A stretch of DNA of 64,000 nt, from assembly GCA_002688035.1 (NCBI GenBank), contig NZBU01000012.1:18272-82271 (forward strand), given 5' to 3'. The notes under the pieces were generated by a model. The model was not told the DNA's origin and made no database searches. It saw only the letters and a program-made list of their open reading frames with translations. Positions 43,346-60,646 of this stretch are shown in pieces; the first letter of the stretch is position 1; every line of letters starts with the position of its first letter. A program made the position numbers and the translations under genes. The DNA is from Candidatus Iainarchaeum sp. GTDB lineage: Archaea; Iainarchaeota; Iainarchaeia; Iainarchaeales; GCA-2688035.

Positions 43346-44173
43346 CTAACGCAGGTATTCCAGCGTATTTTGAACTATTCCCGGTGTAAGCGCAGGGTCA
43401 TAGTTGAAATAGATTGTTTTTCCCAGCAATGTTTTCTTTTCCATTATTGCAGGGAAGCTTTTTGACGAGCCCTCATCCTCAATTATGGCAACAGTGCTTC
43501 CAATAGGCTTAACATCAAAAGTCTTCAAAGAGTATGGCGGCAAACTCGGGCTTGCAGGAGCATTCTCTACTCCAATCATTATCTTGTGGGATATATCTTG
43601 TCTCTTGATCCTGCCTTGCAGTGAAACAACGGTTTCACAGGTTGGCTTTTCGCCTTGTCCAATATCACATTCAACAGGCATAATTGTTCCAAAGTTTGAT
43701 TTCCACCCAATAACATCTGCTGCAACACTTCCTTCCGGCCCACTCCGATAAATTCCTGAATCTAATACTACGATGAGCTTTCCGCCTGTTCTAACAAAGT
43801 TCTCAATCGCTTCCCCAAACTGCCTGCTTACACTCTGTCCAAACGCGCTATCTGCTAAATGCTGATCTAAGAGCACGATGTCATACTGCTCTAATTGTTG
43901 CCCAGGGGTTGTCTCAAATTGAGTGGCATCTTGGATCTTATAATAAACCAAGCTGTTGTCCTGATCCAAAATTGTTACAAGTGCCTGGCTCGGCGCACCA
44001 ATAATAAGCATCTCAGTTTTTGGAGTGGGGGTTTCTAAAGGAATTTTCCACACTCCACTGAAATAGACTGCTCCAACAATTATGAGGAATACTGCAAGAA
44101 TTGCTAACTGTTTGTTCTTAGGAATGTTCAGAGAGAATCCTTCTCCACCCATTTCCTCACCCATCTCACCCAT
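43346..44173 (-). CDS. Single-TM protein with GATase-like alpha/beta domain (paralog A)
   Basis: LEQYDIVLLD, IENFVRTGGKLIVV; C-terminus nearly identical to 52025-52900. Confidence 0.75.
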   Translation of the reverse strand: MGEMGEEMGGEGFSLNIPKNKQLAILAVFLIIVGAVYFSGVWKIPLETPTPKTEMLIIGAPSQALVTILDQDNSLVYYKIQDATQFETTPGQQLEQYDIVLLDQHLADSAFGQSVSRQFGEAIENFVRTGGKLIVVLDSGIYRSGPEGSVAADVIGWKSNFGTIMPVECDIGQGEKPTCETVVSLQGRIKRQDISHKIMIGVENAPASPSLPPYSLKTFDVKPIGSTVAIIEDEGSSKSFPAIMEKKTLLGKTIYFNYDPALTPGIVQNTLEYLR

Positions 44174-49634: not shown

Positions 49635-51017
49635 ATGCCTGCGAAGAAAAGACCACTGCTTGAAAGAATGGCTAGGGCCAGGAAGCTGAAAAGGATTCGT
49701 ACAGAGCGAAAAGTAACTAAGTCTAGGCATGAAGGCATCAGGGTTTTAAGAAATATATCCGCAATAAGGCGGTTTAGGCAGGAGGCAAAAGGAAAAGCGG
49801 TAACAAGACTTGGCTTTGGCAAGGAGGAGAACCGTGCTTTTGAACATGTCGCGGGATTAATGCGTAAAAGTGGCTTGTCGGTTAGAACAGATGCGTTTGG
49901 AAATCTTTATGGTCGGCTTGAAGGCAAGAGTTCAAAAGTGGTTATGGTTGGCTCACATTTGGATAGTGTGAGGAGAGGCGGAGCATTTGATGGGGTTTAT
50001 GGAGTTACTGCTGCACTTGAAGCCCTGAATAATATAAAGGCCACTGGAAACCCAGCCCATCCTATTGATCTTGTCGTATGGAGATGCGAGGAATCAGCCA
50101 GATTTAACAAAGCAATGCTTGGAAGCAATGCTGCTTTGGGCAAACTCACTGCCGAGGATTTAATACGAACAGACGCAAACGGTGTTACTCTTAGAAAAGC
50201 ATTGGAACAAAATGGTTTAACTTACAAGCCCGGACAGCAGCTAATTAATCCACAAAATGTCCTGTTATATATTGAGCCTCATGTTGAGCAAGGAGATATC
50301 CTGGCTCGTGCCAAAAGAAAAAGAATTGGAATTGTAACAAGAATTGCAGGTCCTGAAAGATATGAACTTACTTTCAAAAGCCATTCGGCTCATTCTGGCG
50401 CAACTCCAATGGGGCGCAGGCACAGAAAGGATGCTAATGTGGCGGCCTCAAAGGCAACTGTTAAAACAAGAAACCTAGCTTTAAGAGCCAATCATATTTC
50501 AAGAATTTTAGGTCCAACTGTTTCGCAGGCAGTACACAAAGGCCCAATAGTCGGAACCGTAACCCAAATGAGAACAGTGCAAGGTAGCCTTAATACTATT
50601 CCAGGGATGGTCAGAACAACTCTTGATGTAAGGGCCTTGTCTACGCATCAAAGAGGAAAGCTTGCAAAAAGAATAATTACGGGGGTTAGAAAAGCCGCGT
50701 TAAAAGAAGGGGTTTCACTAGATGTAAAAGAACTCTCCAGAAGTCCGCCTGTTTCAATGAGTGCCAAAAATGTTACTCTTCTTGAAAGAGTGTGCAGAGA
50801 AAATGGTATTGTCCATAGAAAGATGCCTTCCGGCGCAGGGCATGATGCATCCAATCTCCAGAAAGCAGGAATACCTAGCGCAATGTTCTTTGTGCCAAGC
50901 GAAGGTGGCTTTGCGCACAATCCTCATGAAAGAACGCATATAAAAGATCTGGGTGCCGGCGTAGTCCTGCTAACAAAATTCTTACATGGCGTGGCTAAAG
51001 TTAGTCCTGTCAATTAG
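49635..51017 (+). CDS. M20-family N-carbamoyl-amino-acid/allantoate amidohydrolase-like protein, unusually basic
   Basis: DAFGN, GSHLDSV, GAFDG, CEE.ARF, E.HVEQG, HSGATPM, SGAGHDA, HNPHE. Confidence 0.88.
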   Translation: MPAKKRPLLERMARARKLKRIRTERKVTKSRHEGIRVLRNISAIRRFRQEAKGKAVTRLGFGKEENRAFEHVAGLMRKSGLSVRTDAFGNLYGRLEGKSSKVVMVGSHLDSVRRGGAFDGVYGVTAALEALNNIKATGNPAHPIDLVVWRCEESARFNKAMLGSNAALGKLTAEDLIRTDANGVTLRKALEQNGLTYKPGQQLINPQNVLLYIEPHVEQGDILARAKRKRIGIVTRIAGPERYELTFKSHSAHSGATPMGRRHRKDANVAASKATVKTRNLALRANHISRILGPTVSQAVHKGPIVGTVTQMRTVQGSLNTIPGMVRTTLDVRALSTHQRGKLAKRIITGVRKAALKEGVSLDVKELSRSPPVSMSAKNVTLLERVCRENGIVHRKMPSGAGHDASNLQKAGIPSAMFFVPSEGGFAHNPHERTHIKDLGAGVVLLTKFLHGVAKVSPVN

Positions 51018-52024: not shown

Positions 52025-52900
52025 TTATCGCAGGTATTCCAAGGTATTCTGCCATATGCCTGGCGTTAGTGCCGGGTCATAATTAAAGTATAGGCTCTTT
52101 CCCATAATCAAGCGCTTCTCGACTATTGCAGGATAATAACTCTGTGTTACCTCGTTCTTGATGTAAGCAACTTGGTTTCCTGTTGGCTTTACATCAAAGG
52201 TGAACAAGGTCAATGGAGGGTAACTTGGGTCTGCCGGAGCAACCTCAATTCCTTGCATTATCCGGTGGTCAAAGTCATTCCTGTATACTCTTCCTACTGT
52301 GTGAATAGGTTGTTTACAGGTTGGAACATCGTTTTGTGCCCTATCACATTCGGCTGGTATGATTTCGCCAAAGGTTGCTGTCCACCCAATAATGTCTGAG
52401 GCAATGCCTGTTCCATATATTCCGCCTGAACGGTAAATTCCTGAGTCCATTATTACTACAAGTTTTCCGCCTGTTTTAACATAGTTCTCAAGGGCTTCTC
52501 CAACTTGCCTACTTACACTGTGATCATATGCGGTGGTTCCAATATGCTGGTCTAATACTACCATATCATACTGCGCCAGTTGCTCTTCGGGGGCAACATT
52601 TATTGAGGCAGCATCTCTAATCCTAGCATAAATAAGATCTTTGTCTTGGTCAAGCATTGCAAGCATTTGGGCTGATGGTTGTCCAATCACAAGCATTTGG
52701 ATTGGCTCACTCTCCTCAAAAAACGGAATGTCTACGACATCAAACCTATTTAACAAAAAAACTGCTATAATAACAATCAGAATCAGGGGAATAAGTCCCT
52801 CTAAGTTTCTGGTAATCTTTGATTTTATTCCTTCATCATAACCGTAATCTGCTGCAGGAGCAGCTCCAGCGTCGCCCTCAGGATACATCTTATTCACCAT
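52025..52900 (-). CDS. Single-TM protein with GATase-like alpha/beta domain (paralog B)
   Basis: LAQYDMVVLD, LENYVKTGGKLVVI, YFNYDPALTPGI.QNTLEYLR. Confidence 0.78.
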   Translation of the reverse strand: MVNKMYPEGDAGAAPAADYGYDEGIKSKITRNLEGLIPLILIVIIAVFLLNRFDVVDIPFFEESEPIQMLVIGQPSAQMLAMLDQDKDLIYARIRDAASINVAPEEQLAQYDMVVLDQHIGTTAYDHSVSRQVGEALENYVKTGGKLVVIMDSGIYRSGGIYGTGIASDIIGWTATFGEIIPAECDRAQNDVPTCKQPIHTVGRVYRNDFDHRIMQGIEVAPADPSYPPLTLFTFDVKPTGNQVAYIKNEVTQSYYPAIVEKRLIMGKSLYFNYDPALTPGIWQNTLEYLR

Positions 52901-53013
52901 CTCCAATTAATTTGTTAATCTATACTATTCTTACCTTTCATTCTATTTAAACCTTTCTTTCTGCCCCAAATCAGGCAATTAAATAAATGCTTTTCTCATT
53001 TATAAAGCTTTCT

Positions 53014-54051
53014 CTAACCCTTGATGATACCATAGTACATATTCTCTAATGGCAGCAAATATACACCTTTGTCAAAGCCCTCAAGTTTTGGGTTTGCATA
53101 GAGCTCAGGGGGCATTGCATAATATATCACTCTTTCACCAACTCCACTTGTTACAATCATTGGAGTGCTTCTGCTAAAATTAGCGTCTCTCAGGCCTGGG
53201 GGGGTGTCAAGGCTCGTGCCTGTGACAATCTTGGTGCCAAAGTCAAGGCTCAGCACTTCTGTTGTTATGCCCCCGCTGAGCGTATTTACAATTGCAAAGT
53301 CCTCTTTGTCAAAGACCCAGAGTGGAAGCTCGACTGACATTCCTCTTATTAGCGGGTGTTCAAGACTTGGTTCTGGTTGTAGACTTCCGGCATAAACTGG
53401 CTTGTCGTTTTTGCAGGGGGAGATATCACAAAAATTTCCCCTATAAGTTAGGGACAAAAGTTGGTCAAAAGAAATCATTAGGTCTCCTTGCTTTCTTGCC
53501 CAGGGCCCAAGCTTAATGTGTTCATTGGTATCGTCTTGTCTCTCATTTAGATAAAGATATTCGTCTGTAACAATCTGTCCATTAACAATACTTTGCCCGA
53601 GTTCTGTTCCGGCATCCCCGGTCCAAACCAAGCGGCCACCTGTTCCATAATAATCTATGAATGCCCGCAATTTCTCGGTTGAAATCTTCCTAGCACGCTC
53701 TACTATAACCAAATGGTAGGGCCTAAGATTTCCAGTATTCACTCTATCAATGTGCAGGGTGTCAGCCCTCACGCCCAAAAACTCCGGGTTGGCAAGCATG
53801 TCCTGCAAACTACAGTACTCATCAGTACATCCTCCAATAGGGTTGCCCAGACCACTGTCACCATAAACTATGAGAACTCTTGGGCCTCCTGTAGCATAGC
53901 CCATGACTCCCCAGTAAAGCTCGCACCCAAATGGAACCGAACTACACTTTGCAATACCTGTGAATACAAGTATGAAATAAAGAAGCACTAGCAAACCCAC
54001 TAGTATTAGTATGTGCGAGCCATCCTTAATCATCTTTCTAATGTCTGTCAT
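53014..54051 (-). CDS. Single-TM protein with GATase-like domain (distant paralog C)
   Basis: LRPYHLVIVE, FIDYYGTGGRLVWTGDAG, HPLIRG, VIYYAMPP. Confidence 0.7.
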   Translation of the reverse strand: MTDIRKMIKDGSHILILVGLLVLLYFILVFTGIAKCSSVPFGCELYWGVMGYATGGPRVLIVYGDSGLGNPIGGCTDEYCSLQDMLANPEFLGVRADTLHIDRVNTGNLRPYHLVIVERARKISTEKLRAFIDYYGTGGRLVWTGDAGTELGQSIVNGQIVTDEYLYLNERQDDTNEHIKLGPWARKQGDLMISFDQLLSLTYRGNFCDISPCKNDKPVYAGSLQPEPSLEHPLIRGMSVELPLWVFDKEDFAIVNTLSGGITTEVLSLDFGTKIVTGTSLDTPPGLRDANFSRSTPMIVTSGVGERVIYYAMPPELYANPKLEGFDKGVYLLPLENMYYGIIKG

Positions 54052-55356: not shown

Positions 55357-55530
55357 ATGGTTAAACTGAAAAGAGGACCAACAACTACCGGTCCAAGCAG
55401 TTCGCTTGGAATAATGCGTTTCTTTGACGCAGATACCGCCGGCCCAAAGCTGAGTCCTGAATTTGTCGTAATAATCGCTGTAGCACTTATAGCTGTTGTT
55501 GTAGCTGCAAAGCTATTGCTTGGATTCTAA
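55357..55530 (+). CDS. secG: Preprotein translocase subunit Sec61beta
   Basis: 57 aa; P.S.LGIMRFFDAD..GPKLSPEFV plus TM. Not in the ORF track. Confidence 0.9.
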   Translation: MVKLKRGPTTTGPSSSLGIMRFFDADTAGPKLSPEFVVIIAVALIAVVVAAKLLLGF

Positions 55531-56495
55531 AGAGTTGAGCGTTCTTTTTCAACGAGTTGCTTTGCTTTCTTTATTTCGCTTGGATAATGCTTTCCTCTGT
55601 AAAGAACCTTTGCTTCAGCTTCACTTGCATTAAAGGCTTTCTTCAATATTTCTGTTGCCTTTTCGTGGTCAAAGCGCTTGCAGGAAACGACATCTATTTT
55701 TGCAAATCCCTGCAAAGGATAGGTGTGAATTGTGATGTGTGATTCAGCTATGATCACAAAACCGCTTAGGCCTGAGTCCTCTTTCTTTGGCGCCTTATAT
55801 TCTATGATATGTGCTTCTGAAATTTTTTGCATTCCAATTTTTGCAGGAAACTCGTTCAAAATCTTTTCAACAAACTTTTTATCCCCAAGTTTCTTTGCAT
55901 TGCACTTGTACAAGTCCAAAGCGAGCTGTGGCCCGTAGTCTGCACTAAATTTTTCGAGAAAAAGTGGCATTGCCTTATCAATTAAATTGTAAGCCAGGTC
56001 AAATGCGAAGAGCAGGAAAAAGTATTCAAAGTTTCCTGTTACAAAGCCGATTGCAATGGCTCCAATCTCTAGTGAGAGCCTTACACTAACCACTTTCTCC
56101 ACAAGCCTATTCACACTTTTATCTTTTTCCTTTATCTTATCAATAAAATCGTTTAGTATTTCATCTAAGAAACCGAGTAGCAAGAATATTACTAAAAATG
56201 GAAAGTTGATCGCCGGGAAGCCAAAGAGAGAAGCAAAAATGAATAGGGCTGCCACTGCAAACTGGTGCTCCCGTGAATCAATCTTTCCAGCTATAAGCAC
56301 ACCAATAGTAATTGCAATAATGATTGTTGCAAACTCGGTTGAAATGGTAATAAGAAATCCTGCCAATAGGCCATAGGTTATACCTGTTAGGTATGGTAGC
56401 ACAGGGTGCTTTGACTTGAATGGCTCATCAACAAAGTTGTCTGTCATCTTTGTCAGCAGGCCATCCAGAAAAGCTAGCAGGTAGAAAAAAATCAC
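55527..56495 (-). CDS. speD: Fusion of an N-terminal polytopic membrane domain and a pyruvoyl-dependent S-adenosylmethionine decarboxylase
   Basis: About 6 hydrophobic helices, then G.QL.LDLY.C, GLSG..IIAESH.TIHTYP and D..SC. Confidence 0.85.
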   Translation of the reverse strand: MIFFYLLAFLDGLLTKMTDNFVDEPFKSKHPVLPYLTGITYGLLAGFLITISTEFATIIIAITIGVLIAGKIDSREHQFAVAALFIFASLFGFPAINFPFLVIFLLLGFLDEILNDFIDKIKEKDKSVNRLVEKVVSVRLSLEIGAIAIGFVTGNFEYFFLLFAFDLAYNLIDKAMPLFLEKFSADYGPQLALDLYKCNAKKLGDKKFVEKILNEFPAKIGMQKISEAHIIEYKAPKKEDSGLSGFVIIAESHITIHTYPLQGFAKIDVVSCKRFDHEKATEILKKAFNASEAEAKVLYRGKHYPSEIKKAKQLVEKERSTL

Positions 56496-57409
56496 AGTAC
56501 TCCCTTCTCTTTCAATGAAGCTGCAATCAGTGGGAGTGCAATTGTTGCATCACAGTGCACTTGCACACTGCTCCCTTTCTCTTTTATTTTGCCCCAGCTC
56601 TTTGCTTCTTTTGTTTGTGCTCCTGAGAGCGAACCATCGTACTCGACAGCTGTTGAAACATAAACCGCGTAATCCAAGCCATCACGAACAAGGTTTGCGC
56701 CAATAATGTGGTGCTTGCTGATTCCCCCGCCAAGGATTATTGCTGCAGTTTTCTCAGCGTTGAGTACTGTGTCAGCCAGTCTCTTCATGTCCTTTGTAAC
56801 ATCAACCACAAAGTCTGCATGCTCCTGTTTGAAAAAGTACATTTGCAATCCAATTGCCCCATCCGTAATTCCCGGGCAAAAAACAGGAATGTTGTTTTTA
56901 GTGCAGTGATGCAAAAAGCTTTCCTCAGGAAGCGTGCTTCCAATAAACTCGTTCAACTCACTAGGGCTAGTGCTCTTATCTTGAGCATATAATTCGCTGA
57001 ACCATGGCTGTATTTTTTCCTCAAGAATCTCAAAGCCTTTGTTTTCAACAAAAATGTTTCCAATTCTGTTAACTCCTTTCTTGTGGAGCTCAATGTCATC
57101 AACATTAAACGCGCCTTTCCCATAGGGCATAAAGCTCTTGATTATATCGTGGTCAATACTTCCAGCAGTTGTGACGATTGCATCAACAAACTTTTTCTCA
57201 CACATCTCCCTCACTATTCCGCGCAGGCCTGATGCCATCATATTCGCGGTAAACCCAAGAAATATGGTGCAGTTCTCTTTTTTCATTTGTTCAATAAGCT
57301 CAACGGCTTCAGCAAGGTGCGATGCCTGGAACCCAGTGTCTTTCATCTGCCCAATAATATCTGCAGCGCCTTGCTTGTTGTTCAATTTAATATCGCTAAT
57401 CTTTTCCAT
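56492..57409 (-). CDS. dys: Deoxyhypusine synthase
   Basis: TGFQA, FTANM.ASGLR, NRIGN, TDG, GGGISKHH, DGSLSGA..EA.SWGK, DATI. Confidence 0.97.
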   Translation of the reverse strand: MEKISDIKLNNKQGAADIIGQMKDTGFQASHLAEAVELIEQMKKENCTIFLGFTANMMASGLRGIVREMCEKKFVDAIVTTAGSIDHDIIKSFMPYGKGAFNVDDIELHKKGVNRIGNIFVENKGFEILEEKIQPWFSELYAQDKSTSPSELNEFIGSTLPEESFLHHCTKNNIPVFCPGITDGAIGLQMYFFKQEHADFVVDVTKDMKRLADTVLNAEKTAAIILGGGISKHHIIGANLVRDGLDYAVYVSTAVEYDGSLSGAQTKEAKSWGKIKEKGSSVQVHCDATIALPLIAASLKEKGVL

Positions 57410-57526: not shown

Positions 57527-60400
57527 TTAGGCCTTTAATTCGATTGCAAACTCTCTTTCCAGCAGCGTCTCCATTTTCTTGCCTTCAACCACTTTCATCT
57601 TGGTGTTGGTGCCTTCCTCAATCTCTTTCTGGTATTTCTTGAGGAATTCTGGATCACTGCTAGCAATAAGAAGCTCTACTGTTTGCTGTGGCACAAGCTT
57701 TGCTTTTTTTCTCTCGTCCTGGATTTTCCTGCGCAGCTCCTGCAGCCCCCACTCTTCTTTGAGTGCGGCATCAGTTTCTGTGCTAAGCAAAGCAATTACT
57801 CCTGCAACCTCTGTTTCAGCATACTGGCCCTTAGGCTTTGCCTTTACCTCAACAGCCTTTTTCACATTACATGACCTTGCAATAATTGGCAGAACATTCT
57901 TGAATTCTTTTCCTGTCTTTGAAACAATTGCAACTTCTTTGAGAGGCCATCTTCTCCTCAATTTCTCTTGCTCCCTTAGAGCAAGAACCGCCTGCACAAT
58001 ATCTATTGCATTAGCCATCTCTTTCTCAAGTTTCTCATTAACCATCTCTTTGTTGGTTGTGGGTAGTCCAAGCAAATGAACTGAGTCTGGTGCTTTTCCA
58101 ACTGCAGTCTGTTTTAATTGCTGGTATAAGTGTTCTGTTATATGCGGGGCAATTGGCGCAAGCAGTCTTAAGAGCGTGTCCAAGCAAACGCTCATCGTCC
58201 TGTTCACTGCATCATCCTCACGGGCCCTAACAAGCTTTATATATGTTCTGGAGAAATCCTCCATTACAAATTTCTCGATTGCCTGCACCCCCTTGTAGTA
58301 AGTGTAGGTCTCGTAAGCGTCAATGGCATCATTCACCGTGCTATAGAGCCTGCTGAGAATCCACTTATCCTCTACTTCCAACTCTTTTGTGTTCAATGGG
58401 CTAGAGTCAAGCAGTTTTACATCAAGGTACATGCTTGCATAATTGTAAGTGTTGAATAGAACATTGAAGAACTTGCCAATATCCCTAAAGTTATCCCAAT
58501 TAAATGCAAAGTCCTCTCCTCTAGAACTCTGCACAAGGTAGTAGCGCAGGAAGTCGGTGTTGTACTTTTCAATAACTTCTTTTGGCGAAACAATGTTTCC
58601 CTGGCTCTTTGACATCTTCCTTTTGTTCAAATCAAGAACAAGACCGTGAACCACAATATTCTTGAACGGCTTTTTGTCAAATGCAATTGTGCTAAGTATG
58701 AGCTCTGAGTTCCACCAGCCCCGGAACTGGTCTGTTCCCTCCCAATTCAAGTCTGCGGGCCAAAACTTTTCAAATAGCTTTTTGTCACGAGGATATTCAA
58801 GCGCAGCCCAACTACTTACCCCTGAGTCAAACCAAACATCAAGAATTTCTGAAACCCTTTGCATCTCCTTCCCACACTTGCACTTTACCTTTACTTTGTC
58901 AATCATTGGCTTGTGCGGATCTGGAATCTTTTGCCCAGTTTCTTTTTCCAACTCATCAACAGAACCAAACACGCGCTGTTCTCCACATTCACACTTCCAA
59001 ACAGGAACAGGGCTTCCCCAATATCTTGCTCTTGAAATCGGCCAGTCTCCCAAATTCTCTAACCAGTCATGCATTCTTCCCTGCATAAACTTTGGAACCC
59101 AGTTGACTTCCCTGTTAAGTGAAACCATCTTCTTCCTAATTTTTTCAACATTGAAAAAATATTGAGGGAGTGCGAGCATCAGTAGCGGGCTTTTGCATCT
59201 CCAGCAAAGAGGATAGTCGTGAGTATAATCATGCTTGTAGACAAGCGCACCCATTTCCTCCAAATCTGCTATAATATCTTTGTCAACAACCCTTGCTTTT
59301 TCACCAGCATACTTTCCGGCCTCTTCTTTGAGCGAGCCATCTATGTTCACAGGGTTTATTGCCGGCAAACCAGCTTTTCTTCCTTCATCAAAATCCTCTT
59401 TTCCATGGCCAGGCGCGGTATGAACCAAACCAGTTCCTTCATCCAGATTTACATGTCGCTCACTCAATATTACACGATAAGCGTTTTTCAGTTTTCCAAG
59501 TTTTAGGTTAGGGGTTAAAGGGTTCTTATACTGTGTTCCATCAAGCTCTTTTCCCTTAACAGTTTTCTCTATAGAGAAGCCGGCCTCAATACTATCCATT
59601 AATTCCTGTACTTTTTCCTTCGCAATAATCCAGGTTTCTCCATTACTCATTTTCACAAAGTCGTACTCGTATTTTGGGTGCACCATTATCCCCATGTTTC
59701 CAGGTAGAGTCCATGGCGTTGTCGTCCAAATCAAAAAATAAGTGTTCTCCAAGTTCTTTGCCTTGAATTTCACATAGACTGCGGTATCAGTTTGCTTGCT
59801 GTACTCAATTTCGTTAAATGAAACAACTGTTTCGCAGTGCGGGCAAACATGTACAGGGTATATTCCTTCTGTAAGAAATCCTTTATCCGCTCCCTGTTTG
59901 AATGTCCACCAAACAGTGTCAATATACTCGCGACTCAGTGTAAGATATGGGTTCTCCCAATCCATCCAAATCCCGAGGTTTTGGAATTCCCCATTCATTA
60001 CATTAATAAATTCTGTTGCAAAGTGCCTGCACTCTTTTGTGAATTTCTCAACACCATAAGTTTCAATATCTTCCTTGCACTTAAAGCCGTGCTTTTGCTC
60101 AACCTTTATTTCTGTTGGAACTCCGTGCGTATCGTATCCTGCGCGGGCAAAAACATTGTAACCCATCATCCTGCGCGAGCGAATGCTAACATCCTTCAGA
60201 ATCTTGTTAAGGGCTGTTCCCATGTGGATATGACCTGTTGCGTAAGGGGGACCGTCCATAAAATAGTATGGCTTCTTCTGTTTGGAAGACTGGACCTTAA
60301 CCTTGTCGGCAATCTTCTCTTTGGCCCAGAACTTCTTGATTACATTCTCCTTTTCTCCGGAGTATGCTTCCAACTGCTTTTTTTCGCTCACATCATTCAC
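57527..60400 (-). CDS. ileS: Isoleucine--tRNA ligase (archaeal type)
   Basis: DGPPYATG.IHMG, WTTTPWTLP, GTGLVHTAPGHG, DW.ISR.RYWG, KMSKS. Confidence 0.97.
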   Translation of the reverse strand: MNDVSEKKQLEAYSGEKENVIKKFWAKEKIADKVKVQSSKQKKPYYFMDGPPYATGHIHMGTALNKILKDVSIRSRRMMGYNVFARAGYDTHGVPTEIKVEQKHGFKCKEDIETYGVEKFTKECRHFATEFINVMNGEFQNLGIWMDWENPYLTLSREYIDTVWWTFKQGADKGFLTEGIYPVHVCPHCETVVSFNEIEYSKQTDTAVYVKFKAKNLENTYFLIWTTTPWTLPGNMGIMVHPKYEYDFVKMSNGETWIIAKEKVQELMDSIEAGFSIEKTVKGKELDGTQYKNPLTPNLKLGKLKNAYRVILSERHVNLDEGTGLVHTAPGHGKEDFDEGRKAGLPAINPVNIDGSLKEEAGKYAGEKARVVDKDIIADLEEMGALVYKHDYTHDYPLCWRCKSPLLMLALPQYFFNVEKIRKKMVSLNREVNWVPKFMQGRMHDWLENLGDWPISRARYWGSPVPVWKCECGEQRVFGSVDELEKETGQKIPDPHKPMIDKVKVKCKCGKEMQRVSEILDVWFDSGVSSWAALEYPRDKKLFEKFWPADLNWEGTDQFRGWWNSELILSTIAFDKKPFKNIVVHGLVLDLNKRKMSKSQGNIVSPKEVIEKYNTDFLRYYLVQSSRGEDFAFNWDNFRDIGKFFNVLFNTYNYASMYLDVKLLDSSPLNTKELEVEDKWILSRLYSTVNDAIDAYETYTYYKGVQAIEKFVMEDFSRTYIKLVRAREDDAVNRTMSVCLDTLLRLLAPIAPHITEHLYQQLKQTAVGKAPDSVHLLGLPTTNKEMVNEKLEKEMANAIDIVQAVLALREQEKLRRRWPLKEVAIVSKTGKEFKNVLPIIARSCNVKKAVEVKAKPKGQYAETEVAGVIALLSTETDAALKEEWGLQELRRKIQDERKKAKLVPQQTVELLIASSDPEFLKKYQKEIEEGTNTKMKVVEGKKMETLLEREFAIELKA

Positions 60401-60571: not shown

Positions 60572-60646
60572 TGGGTCTGGGAGGATTTGAACCCCCGACC
60601 TGCGGCGTATAAGACCGATGCTCTAGCCAGGCTGAGCTACAGACCC
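60572..60646 (-). tRNA. tRNA-Ile(TAT)
   Basis: GGGTCTG/CAGACCC-A; D arm GCTC/GAGC; TCGGT-CTTATAC-GCCGC; GGGGG-TTCAAAT-CCTCC. Confidence 0.9.

Follow-up and report, generated by a model that had tools for sequence, protein, structure and literature searches.

Among described enzymes, the closest to the gene reported here are the arginine decarboxylases SpeDA of the Marinimicrobia/Diapherotrites/Woesearchaeota group and the class 1B S-adenosylmethionine decarboxylases (AdoMetDCs), such as that of Thermotoga maritima (1TLU/1VR7; TIGR03330). According to PMC10407285, SpeD homologs in genomes that carry no SpeE or other arginine decarboxylase (ADC) but do carry an agmatinase are themselves arginine decarboxylases, ADC activity is recorded for one Diapherotrites and one Marinimicrobia homolog from gene clusters of the speB-speY kind, and the ADC clade adjoins that of the ornithine decarboxylases (ODC). 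The described SpeDA members are small (131 aa in Marinimicrobia) and clustered with SpeY, a homolog of deoxyhypusine synthase (DHS) that couples agmatine and makes free polyamine (PMC13625781, 2026). In Haloferax, according to PMC5178350, an ADC of the PvlArgDC type, DHS and an agmatinase-like gene beside aIF5A occur with no spermidine pathway, and it was proposed that DHS transfers agmatine and that the agmatinase-like enzyme completes deoxyhypusine; the Haloferax DHS lacks His288 and was inactive with agmatine in vitro, and agmatine also serves TiaS there. Deoxyhypusine synthesis in archaea without spermidine has been an open question since that work, and an agmatine-dependent archaeal DHS is raised as a question in PMC13625781 as well.

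The gene described here shares with SpeDA the SpeD fold, the catalytic residues, the clustering with a DHS-family gene and a genomic setting in which an agmatinase-like gene is present while SpeE and other ADCs are missing; it differs in being membrane-linked and coupled to a canonical, aIF5A-type DHS. With the Haloferax route it has in common a likely ADC, DHS and an agmatinase-like gene beside aIF5A, with no spermidine pathway, whereas its DHS keeps His288. SpeDA enzymes and the Haloferax proposal are already known. A membrane-fused SpeD homolog beside a canonical DHS, and the membrane family itself, were not found in a literature search from which subscription journals were mostly excluded, and the word "membrane" does not occur in the main text of PMC10407285.

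A fused gene overlapping dys

The window, by which we mean the whole stretch of 64,000 nucleotides analysed, belongs to a Candidatus Iainarchaeum genome (G000) that is 61% complete. The features under discussion are as follows.

55527..56495, minus strand: fusion gene, 322 aa, an unnamed 7-helix membrane domain plus a predicted pyruvoyl decarboxylase of the SpeD fold
55950..56495, minus strand: aa 1-182, the membrane domain, for which 7 helices in an N-out/C-in arrangement are predicted
55587..55940, minus strand: aa ~186-303, the decarboxylase domain of SpeD fold, which is of the long-loop HT[YF]P type and likely an arginine decarboxylase (SpeDA)
55740..55745, minus strand: predicted self-cleavage site E251/S252, aligned with the T. 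maritima ESH; the Ser would become pyruvoyl
56492..57409, minus strand: dys, assigned as canonical archaeal deoxyhypusine synthase, 305 aa, its stop overlapping the fusion start
57527..60400, minus strand: 957-aa gene upstream of dys, which from its sequence we take to be ileS; also upstream of dys in many relatives
60572..60646, minus strand: tRNA-Ile(UAU), a tRNA with which agmatidine (TiaS) would not be needed

On the minus strand 55527-56495 is a single open frame, while the plus strand there is full of stops. The start codon is GTG, preceded by AAGGGAG and overlapping the TGA stop of dys as GTGA, the overlap that the original prediction had pointed to, and the protein contains the motifs KMTDNFVDE, GKIDSREH, GFLDE, E251/S252-H and S271-C272. 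Frame, motifs and homologs bear out the earlier claim that membrane helices run in frame into an intact AdoMetDC-type domain. A Logan contig covering 55825-56430 in runs X1 and X2 reads across the domain junction at ~55940-55950 and agrees with the window throughout, two runs whose pieces are identical and may stem from one data set or from the source sample (X3 does not cover the junction); this contig answers the proposed raw-read check for a stop between the domains in the negative, as do the 12 genomes, out of 71 in the phylum with the membrane domain, that carry the fusion without an internal stop. In the 90% protein set 26 matches to the fusion protein were found, of which 19 are further fusions of nearly full length with 51-70% identity, and over all searches both domains occur together in 41 proteins, with the SH...H motif intact in 40 and the remaining one a fragment. 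The fusion is kept across five families plus a Micrarchaeota protein, and named homologs come from Diapherotrites/Iainarchaeum, Micrarchaeota, Aenigmarchaeota, Nanoarchaeota and Thermoplasmatota. An assembly artefact or frameshift is rejected by the junction-bridging contig together with the conserved two-domain homologs, and the fusion is a real, conserved archaeal gene. In G021 one copy (G021:C51, L035) stops ~20 residues into the enzyme domain while a whole copy lies on another contig, and in G012:C53 (L015) a remnant of the enzyme domain follows the membrane gene.

Several other genes of the window were recorded. A 57-aa single-helix membrane protein (55357-55530, plus strand), which presumably resembles Sec61-beta, is convergent with the fusion and overlaps its stop by 4 bases. 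Three lineage-specific membrane-anchored proteins (53014-54051, 52025-52906 and 43346-44173, all minus strand) have weak ThuA/GATase-like matches or no Pfam match, and homologs of these three come after the fusion in several relatives. The plus-strand gene at 49635-51017 encodes an M20 amidohydrolase whose N-terminus is extended by a long and strongly basic segment.

Substrate of the fused decarboxylase

Over residues ~187-303 the decarboxylase domain scores 94.9 bits with PF02675 and 82.6 with the AdoMetDC equivalog TIGR03330 (cut-off 75.65), a cut-off also passed by speB/speY-linked homologs (76.5 and 79.2). Foldseek places it with 1vr7/1tlu at E 3e-8 to 6e-8 and TM(target) 0.87 (rmsd 1.8-2.1 A). 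With class 1B AdoMetDCs it shares this fold and the E/SH, His and Cys positions; it differs by a loop ~6 residues longer before the GxS/TG strand, by HT[YF]P-x in place of HxWPE, by the membrane anchor and by the lack of an aminopropyltransferase partner. T. maritima W70 is replaced by Y/F in 40/40 fused domains and E72 is retained in 4/40, two residues that we take to be AdoMet-binding, while the HTxP proline is retained in 39/40. A conserved 'gamma' Pro, which may be the HTxP Pro, is given as a mark of true AdoMetDCs in PMC10407285 (Fig. 8). S252, H257 and C272, the equivalents of S63, H68 and C83 in T. maritima, which the same text names as catalytic residues of SpeD, are present in 37/37 fused rows. 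Catalytic Ser/His/Cys and modelled fold both fit the class 1B SpeD-fold pyruvoyl decarboxylases, to which the domain would belong.

Four types of SpeD homolog occur in the phylum: short-loop HxWPE proteins beside SpeE/BpsA, ODC-type proteins, HTWKE proteins and long-loop HT[YF] proteins, the last type being common to the fusion, to homologs in speD-speB-speY and nspC/aguAB clusters and to DHS-fused homologs. An identity as SpeDC ornithine decarboxylase was rejected, as the fusion has IIAESHITIHT in place of the ODC-type centre QLIETSL.SGH (PMC10407285 Fig. S5) and the ODC rows sit on a long branch of their own. Eleven fused enzyme domains form one group (96/85). A 98/97 branch separates this group, together with the speB-speY-, aguAB/nspC- and agmatinase-linked, DHS-fused and ODC-type homologs, from all 6 SpeE/BpsA-linked AdoMetDCs; this tree has 45 rows, 12 of them chosen from 28 agmatinase-linked metagenome loci, and the clade placement uses speB-speY-linked proxies for the assayed SpeDA proteins (PIN84875, PIS27863). 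The same split appears at 93/94 in a 26-row tree with long, ODC, HTWKE and metagenome rows removed. The nearest stand-alone homolog of the fusion enzyme, at 41% identity, is encoded in a speD-speB-speY cluster, and a Marinimicrobia protein belongs to its 90% cluster. G034 has a pair of almost identical speD-speB(-speY) clusters (C31 and C61; L146, L147) whose SpeD likewise falls into a 90% cluster with a Marinimicrobia protein, and these gene clusters would reflect either recent transfer or binning contamination. Among 80 long-loop metagenome loci, partly chosen by the [YF] pattern and many of them short, agmatinase was found at 28, SpeY at 2, DHS at 1, SpeE/BpsA at 0 and no marker at 51. Loss of the E72 equivalent was ruled out as a marker of the ADC clade, since 29/80 of these long-loop homologs keep the Glu after the Pro.

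Genome content was compared for the 12 fusion genomes, which are 61-99% complete. Canonical SpeE was found in 0/12, and neither SpeE over the cut-off nor BpsA in 7/12, three of which are 91-99% complete; weak SpeE-like matches in longer frames occur in 5/12, G000 included. BpsA is present in 2/12, each time beside its own separate short-loop HxWPE SpeD. PvlArgDC, the ADC type covered by the search, was found in 0/12 fusion genomes versus 8/26 non-fusion genomes, nspC in 0/12 and an arginase-family gene in 11/12. An argH-like match was absent from 9/12, over the cut-off in 2 and partial in 1. An AdoMetDC would be expected with its obligate aminopropyltransferase partner, a place among the SpeE/BpsA-linked sequences and the HxWPE motif, none of which is seen for the fusion in these incomplete genomes; the setting of SpeDA, namely no SpeE, no other ADC among those searched and agmatinase or aguAB present, is what these genomes show. 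The window contains no spermidine synthase, as had been noted before, yet a 719-aa membrane-fused SpeE-like protein is encoded ~1.6 kb past the window end (L001:610-2769, plus strand), ~10 kb from the fusion. It scores 106 versus 249 for speE and has GLGAG/EPSNP where one canonical SpeE of G057 has GGGDG/DSSDP, and membrane-fused SpeE homologs have been doubted as spermidine synthases in PMC5178350.

From tree position, motif and genome content, the fusion enzyme is probably an arginine decarboxylase paralog that converts arginine to agmatine, not the AdoMetDC of the original prediction, which had mentioned arginine-decarboxylating paralogs in passing. SAM or spermidine is less likely as substrate than arginine or agmatine, and none of the results points to a host as the source, as the original prediction had suggested.

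The membrane domain and its linkage to dys

For aa 1-179 no Pfam or NCBIfam family scored above cut-off. DUF554, PstC and ArtQ were rejected as identities, as they appeared as sub-threshold matches in 3/39 rows. The best E value in a PDB sequence-profile search was 0.28, an Atlas search returned unnamed archaeal clusters without a named match, and Foldseek against PDB and BFVD with the domain model gave nothing at E<=0.001. The wide VIA fold search reached a best Z of 6.8 over partial helical stretches, and three prenyltransferase domains among its top six rows (Z 6.5-6.7) cover <60% of the model and fall in the noise range for helical bundles; these fold searches prove neither a new fold nor the absence of relatives. 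Thus, the earlier suggestion to search this domain alone by HMM and structure led to no named family and no clear fold match, and the domain is an unnamed archaeal family without a clear PDB match. By profile search the family comprises 835 clusters at 50% identity. Among the best 150 family matches the longer proteins carry AdoMet_dc in 16/28 cases and no family in 12/28, the 28 scanned including one added from another search and leaving aside a 5446-aa repeat match.

AlphaFold2 on 117 rows predicts seven long helices and one short amphipathic helix (pLDDT 94, pTM 0.89), and the full-length fusion model retains both domains (pLDDT 92). Lys/Arg counts per row are 2.0-5.1 in loops 1, 3 and 5 and the C-terminus versus 0.0-0.2 in the even loops, which places the former inside, so that the enzyme would face the cytoplasm. 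This predicted C-in topology is consistent with the earlier expectation that the beta chain would remain membrane-tethered after autocleavage. K16, D19, D23, K71, D73, D111, E112, N115, R139, D166 and Y169 are near-invariant (107-117 of 117 rows), and H77-Q78 is invariant within the fused subgroup. The motifs DxxxD and DExxND sit with the invariant Lys/Arg at one interface, and the conserved polar residues all point toward the predicted cytoplasmic side; an enzyme or sensor pocket therefore fits at least as well as a pore. The acidic and basic conserved residues would suit an amino-acid ligand.

Decarboxylase-antiporter pairs such as AdiA/AdiC and the chlamydial AaxB/AaxC likewise bring together a polyamine-pathway enzyme and a membrane protein, and the AdiC/AaxC-type transporters are APC/MFS-like. 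The 180-aa membrane domain of the fusion matches neither APC nor MFS by profile or fold search; against known transporter families (APC, MFS, SMR, ABC permease) there are scattered weak matches only, and compared with UbiA, CDP-alcohol transferases and prenyltransferase-like enzymes the Asp motifs are present while fold matches are partial. The membrane-fused SpeE-like proteins (PMC5178350) are a further polyamine-pathway enzyme paired with a membrane protein.

The window DHS scores 364.4 with PRK01221 (cut-off 350) and 338.8 with TIGR00321 (304), and 149 with the SpeY model PRK02492, far below its 500; on these profile scores it is classed as a canonical archaeal DHS, not SpeY. It retains the equivalents of His288, Asp243, Glu323, Trp327 and Lys329 and has Gly where the human enzyme has Asn292, which contacts the ligand according to PMC7226451 and PMC7773846. 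The same Gly is found in 29/30 canonical-type DHS segments of the phylum, spermidine-synthase genomes included (Sulfolobus has Trp), and as a sign of agmatine use it is weak because such relatives share it. In G057 and G067 a stand-alone membrane gene and dys occur with a full AdoMetDC and SpeE set and with the same Gly in DHS; therefore neither the dys-membrane gene pair nor the Gly proves agmatine use.

The membrane domain was found in 71/215 phylum genomes, and 77 of 78 places were analysed (the second fragment of the G208 match was dropped). Dys is adjacent at 34 of the 42 loci outside a sister clade, clade B, in many families and fused or not, the genomes being kin and the locus counts not independent events. 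Twelve of the 42 are fused; dys directly precedes 11 of these, and the twelfth lies where its contig ends. Among the stand-alone genes, 22 have dys <=320 bases upstream. At 1 further locus dys follows immediately, 4 others are close to BpsA+SpeD or to agmatinase-like genes, and the last 3 are free of markers. The proposed survey of stand-alone homologs thus came out in favour of a tie to polyamine genes. Three gene orders recur, namely dys-membrane gene-aIF5A-agmatinase, dys-membrane gene-agmatinase, and agmatinase-SpeD/DHS fusion-membrane gene. The dys link holds whichever decarboxylase the genome carries, and G035, G129, G136, G148, G155 and G168 have dys and the membrane gene with none of the two decarboxylase types searched. 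The fused label requires 5 changes on the membrane tree, yet the fused enzyme domains group together, a pattern that a single fusion followed by several losses or splits would produce.

Further fusions were seen in the phylum. A SpeD-like domain is fused directly to DHS in G071 (L066:3220-4551, minus strand, 444 aa) and G054 (L021:171-1241, plus strand), in both cases flanked by an agmatinase gene on one side and a stand-alone gene of the membrane family on the other. An ODC-type SpeD homolog is fused to a canonical spermidine synthase in G057 and G067 (L120:96-1397, minus strand; L121:1075-2436, plus strand), adjoining a short-loop AdoMetDC, with similar long frames in G054 and G071; this is of a different kind from the SpeD-SpeD fusions, which PMC10407285 reports as not found in archaea. 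G034 has, besides a lineage-type DHS, one with a eukaryote-like active-site segment (G034:C153, L108; Asn and Asp at human positions 292 and 316), 1.9 kb from a membrane-family gene.

Clade B splits off in the membrane-domain tree (35 rows, support 96/99). Within the phylum, 29 of its rows have genes for a KaiC-like ATPase and for roadblock-like and GGR-like proteins nearby, the other 6 have none of the markers, and 0 have dys. At 80 loci in named genomes of other archaeal groups, GGR-like FAD proteins (36), FIST (22), KaiC (20), roadblock-like proteins (20), B12 radical SAM (17), AsnC (17), FilR1 (11), kinase/response regulators (11) and flavin amine oxidases (8) were counted near the clade B gene, and no DHS, agmatinase or SpeD. 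The conserved module (L153-L232) consists of a KaiC-like ATPase, the membrane gene (sometimes in tandem), roadblock-like, FIST, a GGR-like FAD protein or amine oxidase, and B12 radical SAM with an AsnC regulator. A lipid-enzyme reading from two loci (UbiA, PcrB) was dropped, as neither marker recurs in these 80 loci.

Likely fate of agmatine and competing readings

Agmatidine on tRNA-Ile is the usual essential sink of agmatine in archaea. A TiaS domain was found in 0/20 phylum genomes (13 of them >=90% complete), while the 4 control archaea gave a positive result. With TiaS not found and a tRNA-Ile(UAU) in the window, agmatine likely goes to aIF5A modification. In G000, aIF5A lies directly upstream of the agmatinase-like gene.

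We considered a supply module, in which the membrane domain brings arginine and the enzyme makes agmatine for DHS and the agmatinase-like enzyme. The C-terminal domain would be cytoplasmic and would cleave itself at E251/S252, so that the beta chain would stay attached to the membrane domain and a ~71-aa alpha chain would carry the pyruvoyl group; the tethered enzyme would then probably decarboxylate arginine to agmatine. Use of this agmatine for aIF5A deoxyhypusination without spermidine is slightly favoured. DHS might transfer the guanidinobutyl group and the agmatinase-like protein, whose gene adjoins that of aIF5A, might then take off urea; the other path would lead through putrescine/homospermidine. 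Transport is the weakest step: only tentatively do we take the membrane domain as an uptake route for the DHS substrate pool that hands over to the tethered enzyme, with arginine as the substrate of fused forms and arginine or agmatine that of stand-alone forms. Among readings that cover the dys link and the fusion as well as the scarcity of argH, the supply module is the simplest, and as a whole we regard it as plausible, somewhat short of an even chance. It is doubtful that the domain is a new archaea-wide transporter fold which in DPANN takes up arginine and passes it on directly to a tethered ADC of the pyruvoyl type, feeding an agmatine-using DHS, with no tRNA role for agmatine.

The cytoplasmic clustering of the conserved residues would also suit an amine or amino-acid sensor or scaffold that regulates or anchors an arginine decarboxylase and DHS with no transport at all. 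The dys link that survives whichever decarboxylase is present and the company of clade B, where KaiC, FIST, roadblock-like, AsnC, FilR1 and kinase/response-regulator genes recur, point the same way; yet no known signalling output domain is attached and the only fusion partner seen, in 16/28 long matches scanned, is a metabolic enzyme, so that we hold this unlikely. The DxxxD and DExxND motifs with their invariant Lys/Arg could instead form a metal/diphosphate-type Asp-Lys-Arg site of an integral membrane enzyme that modifies lipids or amines, with the decarboxylase supplying the amine. GGR-like FAD proteins (36/80) and flavin amine oxidases (8) near clade B, single loci with UbiA or PcrB+HAD, and the prenyltransferase rows of the VIA search speak for such an enzyme, but those Z values fall within helical-bundle noise and the tight dys link stays unexplained, which makes it quite unlikely.

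A true AdoMetDC making dcSAM for spermidine, with a membrane domain that imports or senses SAM or polyamine, would account for the TIGR03330 score, the T. maritima fold match, the kept Pro and the SpeE-like gene ~10 kb away in G000. This is very unlikely given the tree position, the 7/12 fusion genomes without SpeE over cut-off or BpsA, the separate AdoMetDC kept by BpsA genomes, and the non-canonical nature of the SpeE-like protein, of a kind doubted in PMC5178350. Import of spermidine by the membrane gene for an ordinary DHS, the ADC serving pH balance or free agmatine/putrescine and the fusion being an operon accident, agrees with the active-site residues retained in DHS and with the six genomes that have dys and the membrane gene without either decarboxylase type. 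We consider it highly improbable, as the fusion is kept over five families and a Micrarchaeota protein, G054 and G071 have an enzyme of this type joined to DHS itself, and no TiaS sink was found.

The automatic label "S-adenosylmethionine decarboxylase" on the fusion proteins is probably wrong, and the locus opens a first way to approach the function of this large archaeal membrane family, which has neither a name nor a clear solved fold. It offers a small, non-halophilic set of decarboxylase, DHS, agmatinase-like protein and aIF5A, and because searches of the genomes of this set revealed neither spermidine synthesis nor TiaS, the question of an agmatine-dependent DHS becomes testable in E. 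coli or in vitro. If the supply module holds true, it would represent a compact spermidine-free module for aIF5A modification.
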